A DNA stretch of 64,000 bases. It comes from Endomicrobiales bacterium. GTDB taxonomy: Bacteria > Elusimicrobiota > Endomicrobiia > Endomicrobiales > CAWCFT01. The notes below the pieces were generated by a model. It was not told the DNA's origin. It did no database searches and saw only the letters and a list, made by a program, of their open reading frames with translations. Positions within the stretch are counted from its first letter, which is position 1; the number at the start of each line of letters is the position of its first letter. The position numbers and the translations under genes are program-made. The stretch covers positions 121,454-185,453 of the forward strand of contig CAWCFT010000015.1 of NCBI GenBank assembly GCA_963794945.1. The letters run 5' to 3'. Shown piece by piece: positions 1 through 33,440 of the stretch.

Positions 1-78
1 CAGCACAAGCACCACGTCGGTAAAAGGCGTGATGTTTATCTCCGCCATGAGTTTTTTGCGTTTAAAAGGTTTGATCAT
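1..78 (-). CDS. exbD: ExbD/TolR family protein, 5' part (runs off the window)
   Basis: Manual translation MIKPFKRKKLMAEINITPFTDVVLVL carries the EINxTPxxDV motif; directly follows the ExbB/TolQ gene. Confidence 0.9.
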   Translation of the reverse strand, partial: MIKPFKRKKLMAEINITPFTDVVLVL

Positions 79-12621: not shown

Positions 12622-13500
12622 TCACTGAACTTTTGGCAGATACCTGACCTTTAATTCCTGTTTAATTCCCTGAACGATCTCTCTTATAACCGGGGGCACA
12701 AGATCATAGAATTTAGTTTTCCTGTATTTCTTGAGAAAATCCTCTTTAGTAAAATCAAAACCGACATCATGCCCGGCTTTCTGGCTGAGGAAGTACTTGT
12801 GCTGCTGTATCCAGAGGTAGAGGTCCGTGTAAGTACGGCTGGGGAACCTGTCTAGTATATTCTCTTCGATTATTATCTTGACCGCCGGCAGGAACCTCGT
12901 CTCGTACCAGAGAAGGCTGGCATAGACAATAGCTTTTTTAGCAAGCTCACCGTTATTGTAGTTCCTTTTGAAATCAAGTATCTCTTCATAAAGCTTGCTG
13001 AAACTCGTGAGGTCGGTGACCTTGAGAGGATAAACCAGTATTTCGTTATTGAGGAATGTGTTTTTCATGAAAGCATCCTCTTCGAGCCTTATGAGAAACC
13101 TTTTGGCATGTTCGGTGTCATAAGTATATTTTTTATCGGGTGAAAGCCCGATATCGAAGTGGATTTCAGTAACTTCGGCGTCGATCGCCGCGGCATTAAG
13201 CTCTTTTTTGGCTACGGTTACCCTGTGGTGGCCATCTATGACAAAGTAGCTGTCGAATATCTGATAGACCTTGATAGGCGGAAGGATCTTACCCCCCATC
13301 ATCGCATCCTTTACATTCTCGTACTTGGGGCTTATCCTGTTGTTCTGGGGCAGGAACTCATCATTAAAATCGTTGTACCGGCCGAGACTGCCCACGATCT
13401 TTTCAATGGGGATAGCCTCAACACCCTTGAACTTCTGGTGAGTATGTTCCAGATTTTTTTCGATGGTATCAAAATCGATCAGCTTATTTGTTTCTTCCAT
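12622..13500 (-). CDS. ParB/Srx-domain protein (DUF4032-like)
   Basis: IVGS.GRY.DF and PPI.VY....YFV.DGHHR. Confidence 0.75.
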   Translation of the reverse strand: MEETNKLIDFDTIEKNLEHTHQKFKGVEAIPIEKIVGSLGRYNDFNDEFLPQNNRISPKYENVKDAMMGGKILPPIKVYQIFDSYFVIDGHHRVTVAKKELNAAAIDAEVTEIHFDIGLSPDKKYTYDTEHAKRFLIRLEEDAFMKNTFLNNEILVYPLKVTDLTSFSKLYEEILDFKRNYNNGELAKKAIVYASLLWYETRFLPAVKIIIEENILDRFPSRTYTDLYLWIQQHKYFLSQKAGHDVGFDFTKEDFLKKYRKTKFYDLVPPVIREIVQGIKQELKVRYLPKVQ

Positions 13501-13662
13501 TTTACCCTGCCATGCCCGAGATCGGTAATCTTAATGCCTTTGTACACCCGGAGAGAGTGTCAGTTAAGTCTCTGGCAAATTCGCTTTGTTTACGGGATAC
13601 TTCTTTATTTGAATCTTTCTGATGCCCGCATTATATGATATTTACTGAAAAAATGTAACTTA

Positions 13663-13748
13663 TGCCGGGGGAGGGAATTGAACCCTCACGCCCCTTGCGA
13701 AGCTCAGGATTTTAAGTCCTGTGCGTCTGCCAGTTCCGCCACCCCGGC
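13663..13748 (-). tRNA. tRNA-Leu(UAA), long variable arm, CCA not encoded
   Basis: GCCGGGG/CCCCGGC acceptor stem, CAGGA-CTTAAAA-TCCTG anticodon arm, GAGGG-TTCAATT-CCCTC T arm. Confidence 0.97.
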
Positions 13749-13751
13749 ACT
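13708..13751. repeat. att core (left), 44 bp
   Basis: gattttaagtcctgtgcgtctgccagttccgccaccccggcact. Confidence 0.95.
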
Positions 13752-13756
13752 ATATA

Positions 13757-14851
13757 CTAATTCATTCTATTTTCAATCGCTTTTAATTCAACCGGGATTT
13801 TTACGTTTTCAGAAGTTTGTCTAAAGTTTGTTTGTTCGCTTCTTTTTTCGTAAAAAGCAGACAGCTTATTAAGGCTGTTTATTTCTTCCCTTTTTGAATC
13901 CGGCGATAAATGTGCGTAATACTTCTCAGTAATCATTACGCTTGAATGCCCAAGCCATTTACAAACCTGAAACACGTCCACGCTTGCCATTACTAACTGG
14001 CTCGCAAAGGTATGCCTGAAATCGTGAAACCTGAAATCCTTAATCCCAAGTTCCCTGAATTTAGCCATAAACTTATGCGAAACATGGCAAGGGTGTAAAA
14101 TGCCAAATACAAGCTCATCATCCGGCTTCCCTTCTCCGTAAAGCCTCAGCAATAGATCATAAAGCACATTGCTTACGGGTATATGCCTTGATTTACCTGA
14201 TTTGCTCTTAGGAATAAATATATCTCTTAAGGGCAAAGTAACATCTTTCCACTTCACCCCGCAAAGCTCCCTAAGCCTCATTCCTGTATGCAAAGCACCC
14301 ACGAAATAAGGGTATAAGCTCGTATTTGTTAGATTTGCCTCAAGCGATTGTATCTCAGCCTTATTTAAGAACCTGATATGAGCATTCGGCTCTCTTTTCA
14401 GCTTTACCCCGTTTGCCGGATTAAAGCCCTCAAACCTCTGCCAGATAATCATTTTATTAAACATAGCTTTTACAAGCGAATGATACCTGTCAGCTGTTGA
14501 GTTAGTCAGCCCTTTGCCTACCAAATGGCTTCGCATATGCTGAATATCAAGGGGTGTAAAATCAATTAACCGCTTTTTCCCGAATAATCGGCAAAGATAC
14601 TCTGCTTTACTCAAATCTATTTTCCAAGATTGCTCTGATTTGTTTGGCTTGGAATGATTTTCAATGAACAAGTGGACAGCTTCTTTAAAAGTAATCTCAC
14701 TGCCCTTGCCTGAACCCCTTCCGAGTTCAAGCCTTTTTGTTGCCTCAAACTTTATAGCCTGTTCTCTGGACTTAAACCTTTTTCTGTACCTCTTTCCCAA
14801 CTGCCAAAAGTCATAAGCCCAAGTGCTATTTGAAGTGCGAAGAATACTCAT
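13757..14851 (-). CDS. int: Tyrosine recombinase / phage integrase
   Basis: HTGMR, KSKSGK, FHDFRHT, LGH and Y catalytic residues. Confidence 0.95.
   Translation of the reverse strand: MSILRTSNSTWAYDFWQLGKRYRKRFKSREQAIKFEATKRLELGRGSGKGSEITFKEAVHLFIENHSKPNKSEQSWKIDLSKAEYLCRLFGKKRLIDFTPLDIQHMRSHLVGKGLTNSTADRYHSLVKAMFNKMIIWQRFEGFNPANGVKLKREPNAHIRFLNKAEIQSLEANLTNTSLYPYFVGALHTGMRLRELCGVKWKDVTLPLRDIFIPKSKSGKSRHIPVSNVLYDLLLRLYGEGKPDDELVFGILHPCHVSHKFMAKFRELGIKDFRFHDFRHTFASQLVMASVDVFQVCKWLGHSSVMITEKYYAHLSPDSKREEINSLNKLSAFYEKRSEQTNFRQTSENVKIPVELKAIENRMN
13813..13835. repeat. Putative integrase arm-type site (left)
   Basis: aagtttgtctaaagtttgtttgt, 22/23 identical to 23677-23699. Confidence 0.7.
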
Positions 14852-15081
14852 TTTATATACTCCTCGCCCTTCACCTGTCCATTATTATAACATTTTTCAA
14901 TGCCAAATGGAACATACGTTTTAGCCTCTATCCATCTTTCAATTAAGCCCGTGTCAAACCTCAGCCTATTGCCTATTTTGGTATATGGTATCTGCTTTCT
15001 GTATACCAGATCATAAATAGACGCTATTTTAAGGTTTAAATAGCTTGATAATTCAGTAATGTTTAATAGCCGTTTTTCCAT
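14848..15081 (-). CDS. xis: Excisionase-like HTH protein
   Basis: LL.I.EL..YL.....IY......IP..KIG..LRF; overlaps the int start by 4 nt. Confidence 0.85.
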   Translation of the reverse strand: MEKRLLNITELSSYLNLKIASIYDLVYRKQIPYTKIGNRLRFDTGLIERWIEAKTYVPFGIEKCYNNGQVKGEEYIK

Positions 15082-15109
15082 AAAACCTTAGCAAAACTTA
15101 GCATCCTGC

Positions 15110-15689
15110 TTACTTTAAAAACTTAGACATTTTGAATATTTTGTACATAAATCGCCAATCGCTTAAGTTAGATTGTTCCACAAAGTAACCGTGCCTATCT
15201 ACCAAATAATCAAACGTTTTTTGCCTCAGTATATTTTGGTTTGTAAAAATATTCCTTTCCCTTAATTTTCTTTATCTTCAACTTATTAGCTATTATTTCT
15301 GCTCTCCATGAATATACATTCGCCAAGTTCCGTTTTCGTCTCTGCTCATAAGTCAAATCATAACAAGCCCTACATTTCCAAGCCTGCACTCTTACGCCGT
15401 TACAGTATAAATTTGTAGGCAAGTACAACCTTCCAACTCTCCGGTAACAATGAGGGCAATTATACCAAAGCCTTGTATTGCCATAGTTACATGGAGTTTT
15501 TGTCAAAGTGATTTCTTGTAAATTCTTAGTTCCATCCCTTTTATGCTCAATTACAGCCTTCCCGTTTTTGTCCTCATACCATTTAACTTTAAAGTTAGGA
15601 TCATCTTCGCCATGCATAGCCCAGATAAAATCCCCCCAGACTGATAAAGAATGGCAATTCTCAACTGATACATGCCTCAGATAAGCCAT
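15110..15689 (-). CDS. Hypothetical Cys-rich zinc-finger protein, frameshift near 15230
   Basis: PCNYG..R.W..CP.C...CRAC..L.Y; an alternate frame continues RQKTFDYLVDRH... to a stop at 15110. Confidence 0.6.
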
Positions 15690-16088
15690 AAGTACACCTT
15701 TTTTCCGTTTTTGCCATAAATCAATAAGCTATTTATTCTTTTTGAACGTTCTGAAATTCTATTTTCAACTTGCTTATTAGTTCAAATCACTCTTAAAGCT
15801 AGAAAAAACTCTTTAAAATGTTAACTTTTGTTAACATCTAAGCCTCTCTTAAAGCGTAACGAAACTCTTTGTAAAAAGTCTAGTTTTGTCTAGTAGTTAA
15901 CTTTTCTTTAGCTTCCCAAATAATAACTTTTAATAACTACCCAAATACTAACTTTTACTAACACTCAAGCCTCTTTTTATAGCGTTGGAAAATCTTTCGC
16001 CTGTTATAGGCACACAAAAAATATTTATCAGATCCGCTACAATGACGTTTTTTAAAGAAATTAAGCCCTGAATACAGAGATAATGAAA

Positions 16089-16331
16089 TTATACGCTGGA
16101 TACCCTATTTGTTGAGATTTGAGCCTTGATACTATCAATGTGCCTATTGTTCAAAAGCTTTAAATCTGTCCGCTTAACCTTCTTTTCCGGTTTACCAAGC
16201 CTAAAACGATACAAAGAGCATTTTGGATCAGTGCAGAGCCTTACATCTTCACTGCTATTATTCACGCAAGCAAGACACTGCTTTCTAATCGCTTTCCATA
16301 ACTCACTTTTTGAAACCTGTACTTTTGGCAT
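16089..16331 (-). CDS. Small Cys4 hypothetical protein (phage-type)
   Basis: KAIR..C..C......VRLC....C.LY.FR.G; GAGG RBS. Confidence 0.6.
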   Translation of the reverse strand: MPKVQVSKSELWKAIRKQCLACVNNSSEDVRLCTDPKCSLYRFRLGKPEKKVKRTDLKLLNNRHIDSIKAQISTNRVSSV

Positions 16332-16419
16332 TTGACACCTCTAAATCGTATAATCCCGCATATTCGGGTATCTTAGTTCCCGCACTTTTGGGTATCTTCC
16401 TTAACATCTCTGCTTTTAA

Positions 16420-16899
16420 TCATAACATCTTTGTTCCCGTCCTTTGATTTGCCTTTAAGGGTAAAATGCTGAAAGCAGGTGTTGACTTTGCTGTGCCTTT
16501 CTTACGTTGTGTTGCCTTTTGCTTTCTTGCCCTAACTCTATCAATATGTTCTTGAGTAAGAAAAGCCGGTTTATTTAAGTTCAACTTATAATATCTAACC
16601 CACCCGGTCTTTAAATTAGAAACAAGTCCCAGTTCCGTTAATTCTTTAATATAATCGCAAATATGATCTCTACTTACTTCCGCCTCTGCCGACAACGTCT
16701 TATTTGCCAATTTTCCCACATAGTCCCTAACACAAACATATCGCTGTAAAACATCATATACCCTGCGTGCAGTAGGGCTTAAAATGTTATACATTGCATT
16801 ATCGTAAAACCAATCAGGTGTCATACGAAAATACTTGTCTACTAATTTTGGCTTTACTTGTTGAATATCCGGCATTTCCGGAGCAAATTCTGTTTCCAT
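16420..16899 (-). CDS. Winged-HTH protein, replication-initiator-like
   Basis: LSPTARRVY...L.....VSR..I...IKEL...GLV; followed by direct repeats. Confidence 0.55.
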   Translation of the reverse strand: METEFAPEMPDIQQVKPKLVDKYFRMTPDWFYDNAMYNILSPTARRVYDVLQRYVCVRDYVGKLANKTLSAEAEVSRDHICDYIKELTELGLVSNLKTGWVRYYKLNLNKPAFLTQEHIDRVRARKQKATQRKKGTAKSTPAFSILPLKANQRTGTKML

Positions 16900-16928
16900 C
16901 TCAATCTCACCGTTTTCTTATTAAATTA

Positions 16929-17222
16929 TTACATTTCCCGTTTCCTAGAGAAAAGCCAGTCCTTTGTTGATCTCAGGCTGTCAACATACTTTCTAATACT
17001 AACCTTTAAATCCCCTGACCAGTATTGAACCGCCAGTTTATCTGTATCACCTGAGAATATAAATATTAATCTATCGCCTTCTTTGTCTAATCTAATTGGT
17101 TTTTGAAACAAGGAAAGTGCCGAAGCTTCATGCAGGTCTGCCGTGCGGTATTCTTTATCAATCTGCTCTTGTCTTTTCTTCATCTCTATCCTCCGTATTA
17201 TAAATATTTTCTGTTGATACAT
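16929..17222 (-). CDS. Small hypothetical protein (DUF5659-like); true start probably the internal MKKRQ
   Basis: Y.T.DL..ASAL ... IF.F ... YWSG.L.V; GGAGG RBS before the internal ATG. Confidence 0.55.
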   Translation of the reverse strand: MYQQKIFIIRRIEMKKRQEQIDKEYRTADLHEASALSLFQKPIRLDKEGDRLIFIFSGDTDKLAVQYWSGDLKVSIRKYVDSLRSTKDWLFSRKREM

Positions 17223-17360
17223 ATTCCTTCTACTATTAACTATATCAGAGATTTACCCCACCCTGCCAAACGACTTTTTTTGGTGTAATAAAATCTTGAA
17301 CATATCTCCTGAAATGCTTCACCTGCAAACTGTCATCAATCCTGAAATAGAGTTGACAAT

Positions 17361-17406
17361 AAAAAAAGCCCGAACAGGCGTAATTTTCATTACGTCCATT
17401 CGGGCT
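17361..17406 (-). terminator. Hairpin with U-tract (terminator/attenuator) upstream of the replication-like genes
   Basis: Minus strand AGCCCGAA...TTCGGGCT followed by T-run. Confidence 0.6.
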
Positions 17407-17680
17407 CTCTGGCTCTGGGTTACTTTATTAGGCTCACTGGCTCAAGTTGTCAATCAAGAACCCACGAAATAAACGTATTCTTACGCTAATTCGGGTGTTC
17501 TGTTTTTTCAGATTGACCCTGAATTTTGATATACAAAAAACAGAAGCGGAAAAATCAACATTATACGCATACCTTTTTTGTAATCATATTCAGTTCAGAA
17601 AGATCAAATACAAACTTTGCATATATATTAAATCATATTGAAAACAAAAAATCAAACGTTATCTTCCAAGTACAGCATTA

Positions 17681-18094
17681 CTATTTTTGAGCAGTAGGTG
17701 CTGAGTCAATTGTTTTTTTAAATCCCGGCATCTGTATTTCCTCTAATTGAGCATGCAATGCGTCCTCGTCTATTGAGTACCAAGCCCCAGTAGAGGCATC
17801 TACAATCATGGGAAGGAATCCGCATATACAATCCAACAAAACCCAGCCTATTTCTATATTATCTGAAACAATACTATAGCTACTTTCGTACCCTTCTTTT
17901 TTAAACTGTATGTAAGCATATTTATTGTTTCTAAATTTTAACCGACAGGGCGTTCTGCCTGCGGGTAAACCATTAATTAGAACAATAGCATCGCTTGGAA
18001 TCGATGTTAAGGTAACTATACTGGAATTATTGCCTTTAATAATTGTTGCACAACTTGATAAAAATACACACAAAACCAAAAGACACTTTTTCAT
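17681..18094 (-). CDS. PEGA-domain lipoprotein
   Basis: LSSC lipobox; S.PSDA.V.ING...GRTP...KKEGY; VDA.TGAWY. Confidence 0.8.
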   Translation of the reverse strand: MKKCLLVLCVFLSSCATIIKGNNSSIVTLTSIPSDAIVLINGLPAGRTPCRLKFRNNKYAYIQFKKEGYESSYSIVSDNIEIGWVLLDCICGFLPMIVDASTGAWYSIDEDALHAQLEEIQMPGFKKTIDSAPTAQK

Positions 18095-18332
18095 TCATTT
18101 TCTCCCTTTGATCAAAACTGCTATCGCAATATTTTGGCAACCATACAGTAAACTCATCTAGCATTATATTGCTAAATGTTTTTACAAACACTCTTTCCCA
18201 TTTTTTTCCTGTAACCTGTTCATGATATTTCTTTTTCTTTAATATACTTAATAATTTATTGACTTCTTTGCTATTATAAGCGTGATCTAAACTGCTTTTT
18301 GAATATCTTCTTTTAAATATCGCTTGGCTCAT
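18036..18332 (-). CDS. Hypothetical protein
   Basis: ORF with GAGG RBS; overlaps the next gene by 59 nt. Confidence 0.4.
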   Translation of the reverse strand: MSQAIFKRRYSKSSLDHAYNSKEVNKLLSILKKKKYHEQVTGKKWERVFVKTFSNIMLDEFTVWLPKYCDSSFDQREKMNEKVSFGFVCIFIKLCNNY

Positions 18333-19029
18333 AAACTACCTCTTATCCGGATTCCTTACCACTTCCATTAGCTAAATATGACCCGTTTCTATTTCATTGC
18401 TTTTATTAAAAGGTGAATTTCATTTGCTAACCCCATATTCACTTTCTCTAATTTCGGGATCAGCTTCTGTGCTTTTTCTTTGTTATTGCTTATTAAATAC
18501 AAAATGCTTAGATAATAAAGCGTGTCTTTTTCATCAGGCTTGGACATCAGTACATTTTCATAAGCTTTAATGGCTAGATTATATTTCCCTATATCTTCAT
18601 ATGCATTACCAAGGTATAAATTAATATCTGGATCATTTTTAATATGAGCGTTCGCAGTTTCCAAAAGTTTTACTTCTTCATCATATTTCGATGTTTCATA
18701 CAATATTTGAGAATAATCAATATATGCATATAAATAGTTTTTATCTATTTCAAGAGCTTTAATGAAATAGTCTACTGCCTTATCGTATTCTTTTCGATTT
18801 TTAGCTACCATTCCATTAGCATAATAATAATCAGGGCTTCTATCTTTGTATTCTTGATTTTTACTATTAGATACTAGCTCCACATTTTCAATAGGTATTG
18901 CAAAATTAATATTTTGCGTATCGGAATTGCCTTTATTAACAAGTGAACTCGAAGTAATTCCAATTATCTTTCCATTTGAATTAAAAAGTCCGCCACCACT
19001 ACGAGAATTTCCTATAATCAGTTGAAATA

Positions 19030-19058
19030 TTGAACCACGGTCTCACAAACGCTATAAT
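19030..19058 (+). promoter_or_regulatory. Transposase promoter
   Basis: TTGAAC-N17-TATAAT, then AAGGAG RBS. Confidence 0.6.
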
Positions 19059-19098
19059 GGGTTTTGCTTAAGAAACTCAAATAAAGCGAAAGGAGACC

Positions 19099-20361
19099 AT
19101 GGCAATGAAAAGAGTAGCTAAAAATGGAGTAAAAAGCAATGAGGTAAGAAGTGAGGAAGTGGTGTCGGCGGATGCAAGCCGAGAAGCGCGAATTGCAATG
19201 ATACAGGCGCTTATTCCATTAGGACTGGAAGCGGTATGCCAAGAGTTGCAACGAGAGGTTACGGAGCTTGCGGGAGTACGGTACGGGCGAGAAGGCGAGG
19301 CATACCGGTGGGGTAGCAACAAGGGGTCAGTATACGTCGGTGATCAGAAGTTGCGCATAACGGTACCCCGAGTGCGCAAGGCTGGCAGCAATGAAGAGAT
19401 TCCGCTTAAAGGGTACCAGCGGTTACGAGAGACAGGTATAATTGATGACATTGCGTTACGGCGTGTAATTCACGGCGTGAGCAGCCAGAACTACCGTGCG
19501 GCTGCAATAGCGATTCCAGAGACCTTCGGGATAGCACGCAACAGTGTGTCAAAGTTATGGATACGCGCATCAAGCAAGAAACTGAGAGAGTTGCAGGAGC
19601 GTTCTTTGGATGAGTACGACATTGTTTCGATCATTCTTGACGGTAAATCGTTTGGCGACAATGAGATGATTATAGGGCTTGGTGTGACCCTGACAGGGAA
19701 TAAAGTAATCCTGGGGATGATTGAATCGAACACAGAGAACTTTACGGTATGCCGTGATTTTCTTAACAGTTTGGTTGCCCGAGGGTTGAGTTTGGACAAA
19801 GAATACCTGTTTATTATAGACGGTGGCAAGGGATTAAGAAAAGCGATTGGATCGGTGTTCGGAAAGAAGGGCATTGTGCAGCGGTGTCAGTGGCATAAAC
19901 GTGAGAACGTGGCCGGATATTTGCCGAAAGAGAAGCAGGCGGAGTGGCGAAGAAAGCTACAGGCGGCGTATGAACAGCCGGACTATGAAAAGGCCAGGAA
20001 GCGTTTAAAGTCGCTGCGGAACGAACTGGAGCGGATAAATATTTCAGCAGTACGAAGCCTTGATGAGGGGTTTGAAGAAACGCTTACACTACACCGGCTG
20101 GGCGTATTTGAAGAGCTGGGAATCAGTTTCAAAACGACCAACCTTATTGAGAACGTCAACAGCGGTCTTCAACGCCGGACAGGAAGGGTAACGCGCTGGC
20201 ATACGAGTGACCAGCGTCAACGGTGGGTGGCAACAGCGCTGCTAGAAATAGAACCTCGGTTAAACAAATTGAGGGGTTACAAATATCTGCCGATGTTGCG
20301 TATGGCGATGAAATCATTTGCGTCGGAAAACGAAGATCAGGAACTTGGGCAAGCGGCTTGA
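19099..20361 (+). CDS. IS256/Mutator-family DDE transposase
   Basis: VPRVR, LDG, IIDGGKGL, QRCQWHK..N, TTN.IE..N. Confidence 0.95.
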   Translation: MAMKRVAKNGVKSNEVRSEEVVSADASREARIAMIQALIPLGLEAVCQELQREVTELAGVRYGREGEAYRWGSNKGSVYVGDQKLRITVPRVRKAGSNEEIPLKGYQRLRETGIIDDIALRRVIHGVSSQNYRAAAIAIPETFGIARNSVSKLWIRASSKKLRELQERSLDEYDIVSIILDGKSFGDNEMIIGLGVTLTGNKVILGMIESNTENFTVCRDFLNSLVARGLSLDKEYLFIIDGGKGLRKAIGSVFGKKGIVQRCQWHKRENVAGYLPKEKQAEWRRKLQAAYEQPDYEKARKRLKSLRNELERINISAVRSLDEGFEETLTLHRLGVFEELGISFKTTNLIENVNSGLQRRTGRVTRWHTSDQRQRWVATALLEIEPRLNKLRGYKYLPMLRMAMKSFASENEDQELGQAA

Positions 20362-20983
20362 CTGTGGCTTGTTTCAACTAAGAAAAGGATTGACTCCACC
20401 ACTACTACCGGGAGAAATAGGTGCTGTAAATTGTATAAGTTCAACACCGTTGTATTTTCTTTTTGGATAGCTAATTATCCCCTCACCAACAGTAGCCTCT
20501 AAACCCATTGGAGAACCAATTGTAAATACTTTTTCGCCTACTTTAATATTTACTGAATCGCCTATTCTTGCGAATGGAGTTCCCTTTGCATCAAATTGGA
20601 GTATGATAATATCATACTCAGGGCTAACACCAACAACATCTTTTAATCGATAATATGCTCCGGAAGGAAGTTTGGCTTGAACGTCATATGCCCTACTAAC
20701 AACATGATAATTTGTTACTAGCTTGCCTTTAGAGTCAAGAAAAATACCGCTTCCAGTAGCAATAGTATTCCCTTGTCTATCTAAAGAAATAATAGTCGCA
20801 ATTGCTTCGGAATTTTCAGAAAGTATAATAGTTTTGTTCCTATCCAAATACTTTTCAATAACAACACCCGCAATGAACGCTAAAATTAAGGCAATAATTA
20901 TTTCTTTTGCAAATTTTCTAAATAAAAATAGTATTTTCATTCTCAATACCTCTCTAAACAGGCTAAATTTGACTTAACGACAT

Positions 20984-21310
20984 TTACTCCCATTTATCCT
21001 TCTGTTTAGCTTCTTCTTTAGTTTGCCATTGCATATTAGAAGGCGTATCTGCACCACCACGCTTTAAGGGTACAACATGATCAACTACATACCCTTTTCT
21101 GCCATGTGGATACCCAGTTTGTTTCTCAAAAGCTCTTTTGGCTTTTTCGCTTCTCTTTATTCTACCCTTAGAATCTCTTTGTACACCCACAGCATAATTA
21201 GATTTATGCTTGCCTGTATGAGAATAACCTGAATCATACTTTTTTGTGCGTGCCTCTACATGCGAAAAAGCAAGTAAGCATAAAGTCATTAATACAATTA
21301 TTCTTTTCAT
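20984..21310 (-). CDS. Secreted HNH-type endonuclease
   Basis: Signal peptide ending HVEA; VDHVVPL.RGGAD...NMQW. Confidence 0.8.
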   Translation of the reverse strand: MKRIIVLMTLCLLAFSHVEARTKKYDSGYSHTGKHKSNYAVGVQRDSKGRIKRSEKAKRAFEKQTGYPHGRKGYVVDHVVPLKRGGADTPSNMQWQTKEEAKQKDKWE

Positions 21311-21345
21311 ACTCTAGAGAGTGGTTAGTGCAGTTTATTTCAAAT

Positions 21346-22551
21346 CTATTTCACGCTATTTCGTGGCACTGTGCTGTCCAATTTGGACACAAATGAATTT
21401 ACAATTGAACTAAATACATTATCATTTTTATTAGCAATTCTATTATACTTATCTACCTCTGAATTGTATTCGCCAATTTCCTGTGTAATCTTTTGAATTA
21501 ATTTATTGTGCGGATTAACCAGATTATTGTAATCATTTATATCATTACTCTTTTTATCATACTCCATTTCATTATTAACAGATGTTAACTGAAGTTTATC
21601 GGTTTCTATTTGGTTATTTAATGCTATTAACTCAGTTTTATATTTGGCAAGTTCTGCACCTTTCTGTTGTTTAGCATTCATGAATACAATATAACACGTA
21701 ATACAAACGGCAACTAATGCAACTTGTATAATGTTCGTTTTTCTTTTTTGTTTTTCCAATATTTTAATTGTGTTTGGGACATGTTTAGGTTTAATAAACA
21801 TATTATTGGACAAATAGTATCGGGCATCCGGTTTTATGAAACCAATTACATCTTCCAAACTGCTTCCTCGTTCTTTTAAATATATCCGTGTAAAACGGCT
21901 ATATTCTTCTGGCTTAAAATATCCAAATGAAAATTTTTCTGTACGCCAGTAAAGAAACCCTATACACACCAAAATTATTGTTAGCCACCAGTTTGATGAA
22001 TATTTATAGCCATTTATTACAAGTAATGGTAATCCTGTATATATTGTAGCCAGATCAGTCAATAGTTCGTTTTCTCTCACATCTTCTAATCTTATACCTA
22101 AGCGATCCAAATACAGATGCATTATTTCGTGAGCAAGAACTGCACCAATTGCGAAAGGGTCATTACAATATCTAGTGTTTACCAATATTATTTCTGTTGT
22201 CTTATCCTCTATAATTCTTTTTGTGAATATGCCCGGCACATCCCCCGCCCTAAGTTCTACAAGCATTTTTGAATCTACAAAATCCACAATACAGTTATTT
22301 GCAGGAATCTTAAGAATATCAAATATACTTTTTGCCATATAACGTATGCCGTCAGAACCACCTATGAAATATTGTTTGTAAATGTCATCCGGAAAAAATA
22401 GATTATTTTGAACATCTATGGGTAGCTTGTCTTTCAGAAGTTTAATTTTATCATTCGTATTTATAGATGTGTTTAAAAGCTTTGCCTTACATTTAGTACA
22501 AAACGTATTTATATCGTTATTTTTAGTTCCACACGCTTTACAAGTAAGCAT
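21346..22551 (-). CDS. Zinc-ribbon + HExxH metallopeptidase-like membrane protein with coiled coil
   Basis: N-terminal CxxC-x10-CxxC, AHEIMH...ENELLTD, two TM segments, C-terminal heptads. Confidence 0.6.
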   Translation of the reverse strand: MLTCKACGTKNNDINTFCTKCKAKLLNTSINTNDKIKLLKDKLPIDVQNNLFFPDDIYKQYFIGGSDGIRYMAKSIFDILKIPANNCIVDFVDSKMLVELRAGDVPGIFTKRIIEDKTTEIILVNTRYCNDPFAIGAVLAHEIMHLYLDRLGIRLEDVRENELLTDLATIYTGLPLLVINGYKYSSNWWLTIILVCIGFLYWRTEKFSFGYFKPEEYSRFTRIYLKERGSSLEDVIGFIKPDARYYLSNNMFIKPKHVPNTIKILEKQKRKTNIIQVALVAVCITCYIVFMNAKQQKGAELAKYKTELIALNNQIETDKLQLTSVNNEMEYDKKSNDINDYNNLVNPHNKLIQKITQEIGEYNSEVDKYNRIANKNDNVFSSIVNSFVSKLDSTVPRNSVK

Positions 22552-22571
22552 TATATTTTCACCTCTATAAT

Positions 22572-22604
22572 AAAAAAAACCACACCGCTGTTAAACGTGT
22601 GGTT
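22572..22604 (-). terminator. Intrinsic terminator just upstream of the metallopeptidase gene
   Basis: AACCACAC...GTGTGGTT followed by T-run. Confidence 0.7.
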
Positions 22605-22677
22605 ACTTAATTATCTGATTGCCGGATTCCTGCCCCAAATCTCCATCTCATACCCCAAGAAATGCGACTATGTAGAT

Positions 22678-22706
22678 ATGATATATCTTTGAAAGGTGGG
22701 TGTCAA
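22678..22706 (-). promoter_or_regulatory. Sigma70-like promoter
   Basis: TTGACA-N17-TATCAT. Confidence 0.65.
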
Positions 22707-22718
22707 GGAATGCAATAT

Positions 22719-23210
22719 TTATTCAAACCATCTAACAGACAAAAATTTATTACCTATTCTATTCAATCTTCCATCTCGTGTAAGAATTGTTACGTTTTCT
22801 TTCCCGTGAATATAGCACAATTCTATTCCCATCGCGATTATTAAAATATCAAGTGAACTTAGATAGCCTTCTTTCTTACCAATAGGCGTTGTGTGTTCTT
22901 CTTTAAATATTTTATCTGAATTTATATTATGATACCTATGTAAATCATATGCATATAGCAAGTTCCTATCATGGACAGCTTTAATAAAGTTTCCTCTCCA
23001 TTCGTTGTATATCTTTTCATCCAGCTTCCCATTTTTATAATCCCTAAAACAGTATTTTGCAAACGTATTCAATACTTCCGTTATACAAAACTGTGGGATA
23101 TATAAAAAAGCTTGCCCCAAAGCTTTTTCTTGGAAAAAATCAAGTTTAGTTTTTCCGGCATTTTCTATAGCATAGACAAAAGCCGAAGTATCTATCAAAT
23201 AATACTTCAT
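22719..23210 (-). CDS. PIN-domain (VapC-like) ribonuclease
   Basis: YLIDTSA, TEV, SSLDILI and LTRD acidic PIN residues. Confidence 0.85.
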   Translation of the reverse strand: MKYYLIDTSAFVYAIENAGKTKLDFFQEKALGQAFLYIPQFCITEVLNTFAKYCFRDYKNGKLDEKIYNEWRGNFIKAVHDRNLLYAYDLHRYHNINSDKIFKEEHTTPIGKKEGYLSSLDILIIAMGIELCYIHGKENVTILTRDGRLNRIGNKFLSVRWFE

Positions 23211-23221
23211 AATTAAACGAT

Positions 23222-23386
23222 TTAGCGATAACGGCGAGATTCTTCGAGTAATCTGGATGGAGAGCCTTTACATTCTTTCGTGATATTATGCATTTTTTCA
23301 ACAGCTCTAAGCCCCATGACAATATTATTGTCAATCTTCTTGCCATTGTCCTTAGCTTCTTTAATAATCTTCTGAACGTAAGTCAT
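23222..23386 (-). CDS. 54-aa ORF absent from the ORF track; candidate antitoxin
   Basis: MTYVQKIIKEAK...SRLLEESRRYR; AAGGGG RBS; 11 nt before the PIN start; TTGCTA-N17-TATAAT promoter at 23420-23448. Confidence 0.6.
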   Translation of the reverse strand: MTYVQKIIKEAKDNGKKIDNNIVMGLRAVEKMHNITKECKGSPSRLLEESRRYR

Positions 23387-23676
23387 ATAATTGCCCCTTT
23401 TAAACGGTTGTTCTCTATAATTATAATATCACACAACATGATTAGCAATGACTTTTTCGAATTAAGAATGATTGAAGTGTCACCATACTATCTTAAATAG
23501 CTACAAAAGTCAAATCCCCCTTCCTAAACTATCCCCCAACTAAAGATAAAGTCTCGGTGGGTCAAACTCTAGAAAATACCACCATTGGTGATCATTCTTA
23601 TTATCTACAACCCCTAAAAGAATGCTTTGCTAAAGACATCCCTTGTTTTACATGGGTATACGATACCCAAGTGAAA

Positions 23677-23699
23677 AAGTTTGTCCAAAGTTTGTTTGT
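23677..23699. repeat. Putative integrase arm-type site (right)
   Basis: aagtttgtccaaagtttgtttgt. Confidence 0.7.
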
Positions 23700-23810
23700 G
23701 ACTGCCCAAAAGCAGGGCAAACCAAACTGAAATACTCAGAAATTGACAGCGTAATAGTTTATGTGATTTATCGTAGGAAAAAGGAATATAGGTGAAGGGC
23801 TGTTGTTATA

Positions 23811-23854
23811 GATTTTAAGTCCTGTGCGTCTGCCAGTTCCGCCACCCCGGCACT
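23811..23854 (-). repeat. att core (right): 5' half of tRNA-Leu only
   Basis: Identical to 13708-13751; sequence diverges after the anticodon loop. Confidence 0.95.
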
Positions 23855-23869
23855 TTTGAAAATCGCTTT

Positions 23870-23899
23870 ATTATACAATAAGGTTTCTGTTAGTGTCAA
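23870..23899 (-). promoter_or_regulatory. Native tRNA-Leu promoter
   Basis: TTGACA-N18-TATAAT, 18 nt upstream of the tRNA 5' fragment. Confidence 0.75.
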
Positions 23900-24027
23900 T
23901 TTAGCCTGTTTTTCATCAAAGCCGTTTGTTCCCAAGTATTGCCTATCCCTGAACACCGAAACTCTACAGTTGGCTAACGCCTATTTTTTGCGCCGCACCA
24001 TCTTCACGAAATGCCCAAGATATTTAA

Positions 24028-25479
24028 TTAATGCAGTTTTGTACGAGTCGTTGGTATGTTTTTATCCTTTAACCAGGATTTGAATATTTGTTTAGCAAAA
24101 GTTGCGCAGGCCGCTTTTAAGCCTTTTAAAGAATCGGCTTGTTTAGTAAAAGTGTGCGTTACCTTTCCTGATTTAATATTAATAATATTAACCTTAAGGG
24201 AGTAGCCGCCTTCAACCTTTGTCAAAGAACCGATAATAGTTTGTTTTACGTTAAGTATTCTGCCTAACTCAATTGCGCAGTCAAGCTCGCTGCAGCCCTG
24301 CTGGTTAAAGTACTGCGGTTCAAGCGTTCTCTCCATATCGGGCCTGTCAACTACATCGAATTTCCCTATCTTAATGAGCTCCTCGCGTAAAGAATCTGAT
24401 ATATATGAAGCGGTCAATTGCGGTAACCCAACCGCAGAGAACCTTGCGACAGCCATATCCATTGGCATCCTAAGCTGATAGCGCGGCGGCTGAAACTTAG
24501 GCGGTGCAGGGACCGTCTTGTGTTTAGGAGGCATTTTTTTGGCGGCAGGGAACCTGTACCCAATAGTCAGGCTTTGCGTGGGGCCAAGATAAACCCCCGG
24601 TAAGTACGCGTACCCTATCACGATATTCTTAATAACGAACTGGATGCCTGTGTGAAAATTTGTTTCATCGTCATTGAATCTGTAACCAAGGTTCATTGAG
24701 ATGTTCCCAATCCCTATTTCCACCCCAGCCTCAGGGAACTGCGTGTTGTCCTGAATATTGTTCGTTACTCCAGCTCCCGTAAGCACATAAAAATTGCCAT
24801 TGTTCCAGACATACCCCATGCCGATATAGTTTGAAGTAGGTAAAGGGTTTGACTGGTCTATAAATTTCGTTGAACTGCCGATATTCTGCATAGCAAGCGA
24901 CACGGTAAGGTTTGGAAACGGCAGGTAAAATATTCCTATATCTCCTGCTACTGCAGACGCGGTGCTGCGCTGGGCTATATTGCTCGTGGCGCCCTTTAAC
25001 GTCATCCCCGCGTAGAGGTTGGACAATATCGGATGCTCATATGACAATAGCCCCAGAGTGTCGCTCTCCAGAGAAACGTTTTCGGTATTTAATCCTCCGT
25101 CGTTCCCTATCCAGTTAAGATCAACCGAGCCGGCATCGTAGTAGCCTCCCCCAATGCTTAACATGCCTTTACCTACCGGTATGCCTACAAGCGCGGCTCC
25201 AAGTTTGTCATCGGCAAAACCGAGTTCTGAAATGAACAGGAGCTGCTTTGATGATAAGGTCCCGGCCATAGCCGGGTTATAAAGCACACCTGCGAGGTTT
25301 GAATAACCGGGAGAGGTCACGGACAGCGCCCTGAATTGGGAGGACTCTATCCTGTTAAATATAGTCCAGCCCGAAGAATCGGACGCTGCATAGACGCTGC
25401 AATTATAAAAAGCAAATATGATCAGTGATAAAAATACTTTACGGCGGCTATTATTCATAACAATATTACAATGCTCCAA
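24028..25479 (-). CDS. PorV/PorQ-like barrel fused to a CsgG/FlgO-like C-terminal domain
   Basis: LYNPA, YYDAG, AGDIG and QNIG barrel motifs; Pro-rich linker; F.VVDR......GC...CAIELG..L.V. Confidence 0.65.
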   Translation of the reverse strand: MEHCNIVMNNSRRKVFLSLIIFAFYNCSVYAASDSSGWTIFNRIESSQFRALSVTSPGYSNLAGVLYNPAMAGTLSSKQLLFISELGFADDKLGAALVGIPVGKGMLSIGGGYYDAGSVDLNWIGNDGGLNTENVSLESDTLGLLSYEHPILSNLYAGMTLKGATSNIAQRSTASAVAGDIGIFYLPFPNLTVSLAMQNIGSSTKFIDQSNPLPTSNYIGMGYVWNNGNFYVLTGAGVTNNIQDNTQFPEAGVEIGIGNISMNLGYRFNDDETNFHTGIQFVIKNIVIGYAYLPGVYLGPTQSLTIGYRFPAAKKMPPKHKTVPAPPKFQPPRYQLRMPMDMAVARFSAVGLPQLTASYISDSLREELIKIGKFDVVDRPDMERTLEPQYFNQQGCSELDCAIELGRILNVKQTIIGSLTKVEGGYSLKVNIINIKSGKVTHTFTKQADSLKGLKAACATFAKQIFKSWLKDKNIPTTRTKLH

Positions 25480-29900: not shown

Positions 29901-31257
29901 CTTCCATGGCACCTGTAGTGTAATTTCGCCAGTCCGAAGTCCAGTAAATCCTTTGGCCGTTAGTGGTAATTGCGGCATTTGGCTGGTCAAAATAATAGTT
30001 CGTATTACATATATTTTGTGTAAAGCCAACCCGCCAGAGCCGAGGATGGACAGTCGTTGTGCTTGTTCTTGTCTCGTCAAGTTCTACCATCATAAGCTGG
30101 TTATCAGCCCAATCACTATATTGAACACCATCTCCAGGCCCAGTACCTGAGTTTGAACCTGTATTAGGGCCGTCCCACTCTGTGTTCTGCCCATACGTGG
30201 ATATTAAACCCCAGCCCTTTGCGGCAATACCGGGGCATGAAAGATTGATATTTGAACCATTCCATCCGAAATCACCTTGATATATAACAGGGTAGGCTTT
30301 CTGGTTATCCAGTCTTACAAACTGCATGGTGTCTGTCCAATTTCCTACAGGCGAAACTGTCTGCTGCATAAAAAACACTATTTCATTCCCCTGTTTGTCA
30401 TAGCCGAACGATACATGTGGAAACATTAGCATCGGACTAAACCCGTTTGTAAATGTGTTAGAATAACACATCGGTGTTGTATCATATCCTACAAAAGCAT
30501 AATTGCCGGACTTGGACATATAAACAGCGTTTGGCGCGCTTGTTGTTGCCATTGAAGCAAGCACTACATCATTTGTCTTATCATACGTAAAGACCTCAGG
30601 GATATTTGTATTAGAGTTACCTATCATAAATATCCAATACCTGCTGTTTTCAGAGGTCTCGCCTTCATCTCCGTTCCATATAAAGTAACCGGCAGCAGCA
30701 TACGTCGGAAAATCATTGGCAAAATCATGTACCAGATTATCTGTTTGAGCAGCCACATCATAATACCTTAATTGCATGTTTTTCCTGTAATATAACCAGG
30801 AAGGGTGGGAACCTGAATTATCCCACCGCACTTCTGGCTGCTCCCATCCCAATCTCCCACATACGTATTTAGATTCATCAGACAACCGCCTGTGGAAGTG
30901 TATAAGTAATAGTCGCCACCATCTTGAACATTAACTTCACCTTCAAAAACCAGATATTTCCCATCACAAGATTCTGGGTTATATGTGGCATATTCAACAT
31001 TGGTGCCGAACGGCTCATCCGAATGGTTCTGTTGCCGCATTTGTCAAGCGTGTTACCGTTGTGTTGAAATAACTGTCAACGTAGGGGACACCTTGTGCGG
31101 GTTCTGCCTGCGTGGAATATATGGGCGTACCAGTCCCGTACGGAACCAGATCGTACGTAGAATAGTTAATTATGTAATTAATATCCTGGGCATAAACGCG
31201 CCCAGAAACAGCAAAACAACTCATTATAAATACAATAATTATGTGTTTTATTTTCAT
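26932..31257 (-). CDS. Large secreted protein: propeller-like domain, Ig domain, eight FN3 repeats and CTD-like tail; two frameshifts near the 5' end
   Basis: Signal peptide in 31015..31257, continuing via 30768..31040 into 26932..30885; eight P.NL..VSS..I.L.W repeats. Confidence 0.8.
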
Positions 31258-31459
31258 ATATTCATTTCACACGCAAATTATTTGGGGTATTTTTTGCTGC
31301 GATAAACCTAACCGCCATCATCCATATATAGGCTGCATGAACAAAGCGATCAGCATCTATCGTGGGTTATATGGTATGGAAAAGTTGGTATGCATAAAAT
31401 ATCACCAAATAATTGGGACGTTCCTTTGAACACATCCACAGAGTAAATATAATAAAATA

Positions 31460-33440
31460 TTACTTAAAAATCAATGCTTTCTTTTTAATATTCATATCCG
31501 GTCCTGTAATTACAGCTACATACTCTCCCACAGGCGGGTTTTTCACGGCCCAATCGAATACTCCGCTCTTGATATCATCTTTTGCATCGTACCAGGCTTG
31601 TTCACCTGTCAGAGCGAATATCCTGCATTCATACGTACCGGTATATTTTCCTTTAAAATATATCTTTATCCTGTATTCTGTTTCAGTTGTCTTGATGCCA
31701 GATGAAATTACGATCGCCGCTTCGTTTTCCGCTATTGTGTCAAAAGGGTCCACAGGAACAGCTACCCGGGTGAACGTAGACGTTTCATTCGAATATTCCG
31801 AATCGGAATCGGCATTGTAAGCTTTGACCCTGTAGAAGTAGCGCGTCATTGGAGCAAGCCCTGTATCGGCAAAAGTTGTTATATTAGGACTCACGGTGCC
31901 TATTTGAGTATAGCTGTCTGTTAACTTTTCTTTTCTTTCAATCTTAAAACCGGATTTATTATCAGAATTATATTTCCAACTCAATACTACCGAATTGACA
32001 CTGACTGAGCTGACATAAAGCTCTGAAGGAGCCGGCAGTGGAACTGCAGGGACAGGGGCTGGGTCCGCTATTTCAGCTTCGTGTACAATCTGCGGCTCCT
32101 GAACAACAGGTTCCGGTTCATCTTTAACTGGCAAAGACTGCGGCTTAACCGTATACGGCAGGCCTTCAAGGTCTTCATACCAATGCTCCGGCAGATCCAC
32201 CCTGTAAACTTCGGCGTTGCTTATCCCCCGCCAGTTGGAATTAAACCACAGCTTTGTTCCGGTCAGGTGCCAATCCATCTGGGCGTGCCCCTCATCAAAA
32301 TAATCGCCCTTATAAATATGCTGTGAGAACGTAACGCGGAAAATGCGTCCATCGGCCTTTAATTCAATGAGATATATCTGGTCATACGCCCAGGAAGAAT
32401 GAGAATTAGGCGTGCTGATAGTGTACATACCGGCCCAACCCGGTTTTCCTGTGTTGAAAAAATGGAATCCGCAGTTCCAACCCATACTTTTATGAGCCAT
32501 AATATTGTATTTTTCACCCGTAGCCACATCGCAAACCTGCATACGGTCGGTTTCATTGTTCTGTGAAACTACAGCAAGGTCTCCGTTTCTCATTTGCGCC
32601 CAGCACCAGTGTGTCGCGTCGTTTTTAACGGGCCAGGGCGAGCCGGTTGTCGTAAAATCGAGGTTATATGCGACCGGGCCTTTTCCGCGGTTATGCGGCA
32701 CATATTGCCAGTCGACAAGGACTTTAGAACCATCCGGTGCAACACTGACGCAATTGATATCATACGGGAAACTGGTCATCCTTCCAAGGATCTGGTTCTG
32801 TCTTCTTATCGTAAGTAACAATGCTCAATATTTTCCATGCGCTGTCTCTGACCTCAAAAGCCCAATATCTTGAATCCGAGGAACAATCGCCTTCTTCATC
32901 GCATTTGATATAGGTACATTTTGGATACTGCTGGCTGAAATCATGCACACTAACAGATGTCCCCAGGGGGTTCTGAAGCATTAACATCCATCCGCATGAG
33001 TTTAGGCCCACGGACATAATACAGCCATGAAGGGTGATTACTGCTCCCGTCCCACCTGGGTTCGGGGTCACCGTTCCAAGATTCCAGCCTGAGATCCTTG
33101 ATATAAACATTCGTAACTGCGTTGTAAAGAGCGTACTTAGCAGAAGCATCGCACATCATTAACAAAATATATTTCCCATCGGAACTGACTCCTGAAAAAG
33201 TAGAATATCCGGTGATCAGCCTTTTCCCTGTATACTTGTCGATTTTTTTATCACTTACCCTTGTGATCGTTGTATGAAAGACAGGATCAACATAAGATTT
33301 ATTCTTAGCCGGCTGCCTTGCGTAGAATACGGGTACAGGGTGTTTCCAAGCACATAGTTAAACGCGAATAATTTTAACTGGAAAAGTGTTATCATTAGAA
33401 GAACTGAGATAACAGCCGTTTTTAAATAACTACCGCGCAT
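31460..33440 (-). CDS. Paralogous secreted protein: propeller-like domain, Pro-rich linker, one FN3 and CTD-like tail; several frameshifts
   Basis: Fragments 33255..33440, 32950..33165, 32760..33149 and 31460..32821 share EPRWD..HPSWLYY, SRYW and VDLP.HWY.DL with the neighbour. Confidence 0.75.

Follow-up and report, generated by a model that had tools for sequence, protein, structure and literature searches.

When an integrating element rebuilds the front half of a transfer RNA (tRNA) gene from its own DNA and leaves the promoter behind, from what is the gene then transcribed? This question is raised by a 10.1-kb tyrosine-integrase element lodged in the tRNA-Leu(UAA) gene of an Endomicrobiales bacterium of the Elusimicrobiota (assembly GCA_963794945.1). 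The element lies in a stretch of 64,000 nucleotides (nt) of contig CAWCFT010000015.1 (positions 121,454 to 185,453 of the forward strand), which was analyzed as a whole and is called the window below. We conclude, with a probability that we put at roughly 0.85, that the element sits in its target in the reversed orientation, that the DNA upstream of the intact tRNA gene belongs to the element, and that the tRNA is likely transcribed from element DNA.

The target gene, on the minus strand, is the only tRNA that ARAGORN reports in the window (13662-13749), where it is identified as tRNA-Leu(UAA), and the Rfam tRNA model RF00005 matches it at 13663-13748 with a score of 60.9 bits (gathering score 29). 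A repeat search of the window finds an exact 44-nt direct repeat (44/44 identical), one copy of which makes up the 5′ part of this gene, while the other lies at the far end of the element (Table 1). Read in the sense of the tRNA, the repeat runs from position -3 of the leader to position 41, just beyond the anticodon loop. The two copies of this attachment (att) sequence lie 10,103 bp apart, and the distal half lies upstream of the full tRNA gene in the same orientation. Neither ARAGORN nor Rfam calls a tRNA at the displaced half; in the Rfam scan of 13400-24200 no RNA family was matched besides the intact tRNA. The G+C content is 0.30-0.37 inside the element versus 0.44-0.50 outside. The intact gene is composed of a 5′ half beside the integrase gene and a host 3′ half, and the host consensus promoter now stands only before a dead half of 41 nt. 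The integrase gene ends with a TAG codon (13757-13759) 8 nt from the first nucleotide of the tRNA. This is the arrangement that the first-pass annotation of the window had described, with an att sequence reaching from 3 nt of leader through the anticodon loop, a duplicated 5′ half, a host promoter detached and aimed into the element, element DNA upstream of the intact tRNA and an 8-nt gap after the integrase stop codon, and all of its coordinates hold.

Comparison with uninterrupted target sites, which that annotation had suggested, identifies the native sides of the locus. The relatives compared belong to the same order as the window genome (G000; 19 contigs, 2.9 Mb, 86% complete, 5.9% contamination) and to families other than its own. 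A match to tRNA-Leu(UAA) is present in 40 of the 41 same-order genomes. In three of them (G013, G005 and G007) the motif TTGAC(T/G/C)-N17/18-TA(T/A)AAT stands 17-18 nt ahead of an uninterrupted tRNA. It is embedded in sequence such as CTTATTGTATAATAAA and is recognizably the promoter that lies ahead of the half copy in the window (23855-23900). A homolog of the gene immediately 3′ of the tRNA, 62-69% identical, also adjoins tRNA-Leu(UAA) in five of the six relatives' loci tested. Since the relatives keep the same promoter and the same downstream gene at an intact tRNA, the 3′ flank and the far promoter of the window locus are native, and it follows that everything between the repeats, including the DNA upstream of the intact tRNA beyond position -3, is element. 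A repeat of the 5′ fragment, a tyrosine integrase, a full-length tRNA and an empty target in relatives, the features of a tRNA-gene (tDNA) island with a displaced 5′ fragment, are all present.

The reversed layout is the rule for the Elusimicrobiota integrase lineage to which the window element belongs. The close family of the integrase has 26 further proteins at 47-69% identity (E <= 2e-97 in every case; identities from the 25-sequence alignment or from BLASTP), after which there is a gap down to 36-38%; the source names of these proteins are Endomicrobiales and Elusimicrobia. A search of 401 Elusimicrobiota genomes, with a threshold of at least 51% identity to the window integrase, found ten more copies, namely two more in the window genome, two in G012, two in G004, and others in G214, G003 and G016. 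A co-oriented tRNA gene directly follows the stop codon in 10 of the 11 full-length integrases of this clade, and the tRNAs concerned are Leu(UAA), Leu(CAA), Arg(ACG) (twice), Ser(GCU) and Glu(CUC) (five times, including one on contig C17 of the window genome). The eleventh integrase, on the same C17, lies directly before a displaced 5′ half of tRNA-Glu(CUC) in a tandem array outside the window (12663-91448 of C17). In this array the intact tRNA-Glu(CUC) occupies 12663-12739, its first 39-40 nt recur at 30489-30527 and 91409-91448, and the clade integrases at 12775-13851 and 30578-31630 belong to reversed elements of 17.8 kb and 60.9 kb. A twelfth copy (L004), truncated at the contig start in G016, stands before tRNA-Leu(UAA) in the same layout. 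The 5′-half repeats at the far ends of these elements measure 44 bp (window), 42 bp (G012), 40 bp (G214) and 39 and 40 bp (the two C17 elements), and each ends in or just past the anticodon loop; at two loci (L132 and L135) no far-end repeat was found within 17-19 kb. Targeting specific to the UUA-decoding tRNA was considered and rejected, since sister integrases of the clade occupy other tRNA genes in the same manner, namely those for Glu(CUC), Arg(ACG), Ser(GCU) and Leu(CAA). The first-pass annotation had suggested that the element controls the supply of this tRNA, which could penalize its imprecise loss and influence how AT-rich genes are translated. This is a conjecture, and the use of other tRNAs by the sister elements speaks against a version of it that is particular to UUA, as does the fact that the arrangement belongs to a catalogued class.

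Outside this clade both layouts occur. Eighty distant relatives from many phyla (26-39% identity, on genome contigs) were scanned for a tRNA gene within 400 nt after the integrase stop codon; one is adjacent in 51 of them, co-oriented in 27 and convergent, the usual layout, in 24, and 29 have none. By the same classification the 30 Elusimicrobiota loci from the 401-genome search comprise 17 co-oriented, no convergent and 13 without a tRNA, so that every tRNA-adjacent locus there (17/17) is co-oriented. A scan of metagenome contigs added a single locus at 27% identity, and viral contigs gave only loci of at most 31% identity over more than 100 matched residues. A displaced tRNA fragment was sought in the 33 distant loci with at least 1.5 kb of upstream DNA. 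It is present in 3 of the 13 co-oriented loci, where it is the 5′ half every time and ends at positions 38-43, and in 5 of the 20 convergent loci, where it is the 3′ part every time and starts at positions 29-32; the other 25 show no displaced fragment within the available upstream DNA. Because the repeat blocks of reversed and usual-orientation relatives overlap only in the anticodon stem-loop (positions 29-43), strand exchange probably takes place there, at a point that is not readable from the sequence inside an exact repeat.

On a quick maximum-likelihood tree of 102 integrases, 65 of them labeled with an orientation, six changes of orientation are needed, at least four of which are forced by well-supported branches; shuffling the labels gives a mean of 17.2 changes, and none of 500 shuffles was as low as six. 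The window integrase falls in a branch of 29 rows with 19 co-oriented and no convergent members. The tree thus indicates that orientation is inherited with the integrase; its rows are related, so the clustering reflects inheritance and not independent events. In eight co-oriented loci of the 110 (L022, L025, L039, L040, L110, L119, L122 and L127) the integrase open reading frame (ORF) ends 10-24 nt inside the tRNA gene, and there the C-terminus of the integrase is encoded across the att core.

The ends of the element resemble a phage-type attachment site (attP). At 62-86 nt upstream of the tRNA is the 23-nt tandem repeat ACAAACAAACTTTAGACAAACTT, a second copy of which, 22/23 (96%) identical, lies near the other end. 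In five of the six complete elements, matching arm-type pairs flank the core at similar distances (shared-word test, at least 9 nt); in the sixth a related repeat word, offset, was seen by eye only and not by that test. The repeats are tandem and direct and lie about 60-100 nt from the core on one side and about 90-130 nt on the other, and the repeated word differs between elements (GACAAACTT, CGTCAAAC and GGACACTTT). In the clade alignment, protein conservation of the integrase ends after residue 330. This loss of conservation, the co-variation of the repeats and the Int_N domain of the integrase are all as expected if the last part of the integrase ORF contains arm-type integrase sites, and attP would then consist of the core and arm-type repeats on both sides, one pair of them in the non-conserved 3′ tail of the integrase gene. 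In the DNA immediately internal to the displaced half (23780-23810 in the window, with corresponding places in G012, G214 and C17 of the window genome), several elements have AGCCC(T/C)(T/C)CAC in common and, about 30 nt in, words resembling (C/A)CGA(C/T)GATAA. Both may be core-type sites of attP or sites for accessory proteins.

How the rebuilt tRNA might be transcribed can be set out as follows. The att site of the element carries the 5′ part of the tRNA, from -3 of the leader to position 41, and the native promoter is left on the 41-nt half, facing the element; strand exchange probably occurs in the anticodon stem-loop. The intact gene would be transcribed either from TTGAAT-N16-TAGAAT, the -10 hexamer of which ends 15 nt before the first nucleotide of the tRNA, or by read-through from the integrase gene, its leader would be trimmed by RNase P, and precise excision would restore the native junction of promoter and tRNA. 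That the gene must be transcribed follows from its role, since UUA is read only by a tRNA with a UAA anticodon, and TTA is widespread, making up 10.7% of leucine codons and occurring in 1557 of the 1746 ORFs of at least 200 amino acids (89%). The 38 tRNAs found in the 19 contigs include a single tRNA-Leu(UAA). An ARAGORN "tRNA-Stop" with anticodon UUA elsewhere in the genome (contig C8, 108533-108607, outside the window) has mismatches in both its acceptor stem and its anticodon stem and is probably spurious. The intact tRNA is likely transcribed from element DNA, which is the sole DNA upstream of the gene.

A promoter scan of the minus strand gives TTGACA-18-TATAAT at 23899-23870, with 12 of 12 consensus positions, and TTGAAT-16-TAGAAT at 13791-13764, with 9 of 12. 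The upstream regions were also scored with a position weight matrix for the best sigma-70-like site having its -10 end 4-35 nt before the tRNA; the matrix was set up from general consensus frequencies and the loci are interrelated, so the p-values overstate significance. The element side of the window locus scores 10.0 bits (shuffle p ~0.01), the highest of 47 reversed loci, compared with 14.4 bits for the orphaned native promoter and 13.1-13.7 bits for native promoters in the relatives. The 47 element-side sequences of reversed loci have a median of 4.84 bits, and 19% of them reach a shuffle p < 0.05; the corresponding values are 6.83 bits and 45% for 22 native tRNA upstream regions, and 2.51 bits and 0% for the integrase tails of 22 usual-orientation loci that served as control. 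Reversed loci score above the control (Mann-Whitney p 0.0036), and native regions score above reversed loci (p 0.011). An islet at tRNA-Leu(UAA) in G003 (L137; contig C28, 1261-6142; 4.8 kb) has no integrase gene and is bounded by a 47-bp repeat of the 5′ half, and on its element side it has a near copy of the native 12/12 promoter, so elements of this kind can bring true tRNA promoters. In this islet near-identical 12/12 promoters stand ahead of both repeat copies, and host-like upstream DNA lies on its element side; it contains a Schlafen AlbA_2/HATPase_c_4 gene, the IS21 genes IstA and IstB, and a truncated ORF, CsgG-like and similar to the window gene at 24028-25479. TTGAAT-N16-TAGAAT itself is a positional candidate, weaker than the native promoter and not statistically secure from the regional scan alone.

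The remaining features of the element are listed in Table 1. In the 25-sequence clade alignment, residues R192, K217/K220, H276, R279, H302 and Y312 of the integrase stand in invariant columns, and we take them to be the catalytic R-K-H-R-H-Y residues of the family. The Mutator-family transposase, present as a single copy in the assembly, has a host-like G+C content of 0.47-0.48 versus about 0.33 around it and starts 13 nt from the stop codon of the Trypsin_2 ORF. That ORF (20374-20946) matches positions 326-471 of the 506 of PADLOC RT-Protease_XI, which is the C-terminal protease part only, and no reverse-transcriptase part was seen near it. A defense island was considered and rejected, as PADLOC recognized no system and matched only this protease ORF and, marginally, the HNH-like ORF (REase_II, E 0.00071), with no match in 15210-18883. 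The PHROGs matches of 14 ORFs are limited to integrase, excisionase/helix-turn-helix, a weak replication initiator, protease and HNH, with no capsid, tail, terminase or lysis genes among them, and no relaxase, coupling protein or type IV secretion genes are among the Pfam matches of the 15 element ORFs, some of which are small and without assignment. TTA is used 29 times per 1000 codons in the island versus 9.9 in the host.

Table 1. Features of the tRNA-Leu(UAA) element and its borders (window coordinates)
Feature	Position	Strand	Remarks
Host gene 3′ of the tRNA, marking the native 3′ flank	12622..13500	-	Homolog beside tRNA-Leu(UAA) in relatives
Intact tRNA-Leu(UAA)	13663..13748	-	5′ part to about position 41 within the repeat beside the integrase gene; 3′ part host DNA
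Integrase-proximal att copy, 44 bp	13708..13751	.	Exact direct repeat
Tyrosine integrase, 364 amino acids	13757..14851	-	PF00589 E 2.4e-26; Int_N PF24624; phrog_1 E 6.5e-71; stop codon 8 nt upstream of the tRNA
Candidate replacement promoter TTGAAT-N16-TAGAAT	13764..13791	-	In the final integrase codons; predicted
Tandem arm-type repeat (GACAAACTT-like, 11-bp period)	13813..13835	.	Inside the integrase 3′ tail; candidate arm-binding site
HTH_17 protein, likely excisionase or regulator	14848..15081	-	PF12728 E 4.6e-10; phrog_66 excisionase and transcriptional regulator E 4.7e-06; overlaps the integrase start
ORFs without assignment, weak replication-initiator/HTH-like ORF (16420-16899), PEGA-domain protein, TPR protein	15210..18883	-	Pfam, PHROGs
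Mutator-family transposase (insertion sequence)	19099..20361	+	PF00872 E 2.3e-34
Trypsin_2 peptidase, HNH-like ORF, zinc-ribbon ORF (401 amino acids), PIN-domain ORF, 66-amino-acid ORF	20374..23346	-	Cargo
Second arm-type tandem repeat	23677..23699	.	112 nt inward from the far att copy
Displaced host 5′ half of tRNA-Leu(UAA), integrase-distal att copy	23811..23854	-	Exact direct repeat
Orphaned native tRNA promoter TTGACA-N18-TATAAT	23870..23899	-	12/12; faces into the element

Some of these observations weigh against our conclusion, and they are best considered with the alternatives on which they bear. The tRNA could be produced mainly by read-through of the integrase gene (or of xis-int) and RNase P cleavage, in which case TTGAAT-N16-TAGAAT would be a chance match and the tRNA supply would follow transcription of the integrase operon; we consider this possible and rather unlikely. 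The first-pass annotation had put forward TTGAAT-N16-TAGAAT as the replacement promoter, and its sequence and position stand, but promoter-like sites are no more numerous in 13500-15300 than in shuffled sequence (4 versus a mean of 4.4). A shuffle p of at least 0.05 is obtained for 81% of the 47 reversed loci, and most close relatives are without a significant sigma-70-like site; they score 2.0-7.0 bits, only the window element has p < 0.05 within the clade (300 shuffles), and the sister element at tRNA-Leu(UAA) in G016 reaches 7.2 bits (p 0.13). A second site in the window, TTGAAA-16-TATAGT (10/12), ends at the tRNA start and could not yield a full tRNA. There is no terminator in the 8 nt between the integrase stop codon and the tRNA, and the entry of the integrase ORF into the tRNA gene at eight co-oriented loci likewise fits read-through. 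A terminator-like hairpin further upstream (13878-13861, minus strand) was set aside, as it consists of no more than five pairs and falls within the conserved coding motif LNKLS. On the other hand, transcription of the integrase gene is as a rule weak in resident elements, which agrees poorly with a tRNA that 89% of the long ORFs need; moreover, the reversed loci as a set outscore the integrase-tail control, and the G003 islet has a near-native promoter on its element side. We give about even odds to the named promoter and to integrase read-through as the source of the transcript, and either way the tRNA would depend on element DNA.

The other alternatives concern the state of the element, the number of tRNA copies and the assembly. 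It is doubtful that the element is a fixed remnant that no longer moves, its arrangement being a scar without dynamic control: an insertion sequence of host-like G+C content has entered it, and an integrase-less islet with the same kind of bounding repeat is among the related loci, both of which speak for a remnant, but the integrase ORF is full length with its presumed catalytic residues in place, the Xis-like gene is intact, and both the att repeats and the arm-type repeats at the two ends have stayed identical or nearly so. It is improbable that sequence missing from the assembly holds another tRNA-Leu(UAA), which would make the rebuilt copy dispensable. The incompleteness and contamination of the assembly leave room for one, and expected tRNAs (for example Ile, Asn and Leu-CAG) are missing from the 38 found. 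The genome-wide search, a check proposed at the outset, returned only the intact gene and the 44-bp half, however, and among the matches listed in relatives those of at least 90% identity number one per genome, the weaker hits not all being typed by anticodon. That the repeat is a local duplication or a mis-assembly is very improbable indeed; the assembly is of the metagenome type and carries the contamination given above, but the repeats exactly bound a low-G+C block with integrase and Xis-like genes, the same architecture is found in independent genomes and at other tRNAs, and both host flanks match the native context in relatives. The reading of a reversed element from whose DNA the tRNA is likely transcribed stands as the one we prefer.

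A more far-reaching proposal can be attached to it. The integrase tail might serve as cis-acting DNA that holds both arm sites and a tRNA promoter, so that an essential single-copy tRNA would depend on signals of the element; hostage-type stabilization would then be combined with promoter capture, and flips of orientation would be rare. We regard this as unlikely. If it were true, each integration would hand the host's strongest class of promoter to the element. Fourteen of the 15 element ORFs are co-oriented with the orphaned promoter, and about 220 nt downstream of the displaced half a hairpin weakly resembles a terminator. There is no evidence of a conserved use of the captured promoter among the five complete elements, as the ORFs after the half differ in all of them. 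The idea that the host promoter drives a conserved module was rejected on this ground, and in G012 the gene nearest the half even runs in the other direction.

An element that replaces the front of a tRNA gene has to bring a means of transcription as well, which places a core component of translation under mobile-element sequence. Three results are relevant to tools that search for islands and to selecting integrases for use in genome engineering: the rule for the lineage, the inheritance of orientation, and the reversed layout at about half of those loci of the wider family that adjoin a tRNA gene. The single case in the window adds no new principle.

In phage lambda the int gene reads towards attP, and arm-type integrase sites flank the core. 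The window element is like this in that the 3′ end of its integrase gene abuts the core, its integrase has an arm-binding-type domain (Int_N, PF24624) and tandem repeats lie on both sides. It differs in that one arm pair, to which integrase is predicted to bind, and the candidate tRNA promoter lie in the non-conserved tail of the integrase ORF.

The reversed-orientation tRNA island is a known, catalogued minority class. Of the 3919 islands in Table 1 of the Islander paper, 3760 have a 3′ fragment and 159 a 5′ fragment (PMC4383910), figures that bear out the premise of the first-pass annotation that duplication of the 3′ part is the norm, and the algorithm described there allows for a co-oriented 5′ fragment that lies upstream of the tDNA, on the other side of the island. 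A 2019 paper describes 5′-distal recombination as "considerably less frequent", with reference to Zhao and Williams 2002 and to archaeal cases (PMC6563490). The window element resembles the 5′-fragment islands, as that algorithm defines them, in its tyrosine integrase, its displaced 5′ fragment upstream of a regenerated co-oriented gene and the island between the two. Islander also reports 2083 islands with anticodon-centered sites (PMC4383910). The present loci agree with such sites in that their blocks end at 38-43 (reversed) or begin at 29-32 (usual) and share the anticodon stem-loop as core, whereas the window element is a mirror image of the usual ones, with a block that runs toward the 5′ end of the tRNA and a crossover that is inferred. 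What the present comparison would add to these records is the rule for a lineage, the inheritance of orientation, a model of attP with arm repeats in the integrase tail and statistical support for element-borne tRNA promoters. The window host differs from those of the Islander 5′-fragment islands in belonging to an uncultured Elusimicrobiota lineage in which this layout is the rule, at 17 of 17 tRNA-adjacent loci.

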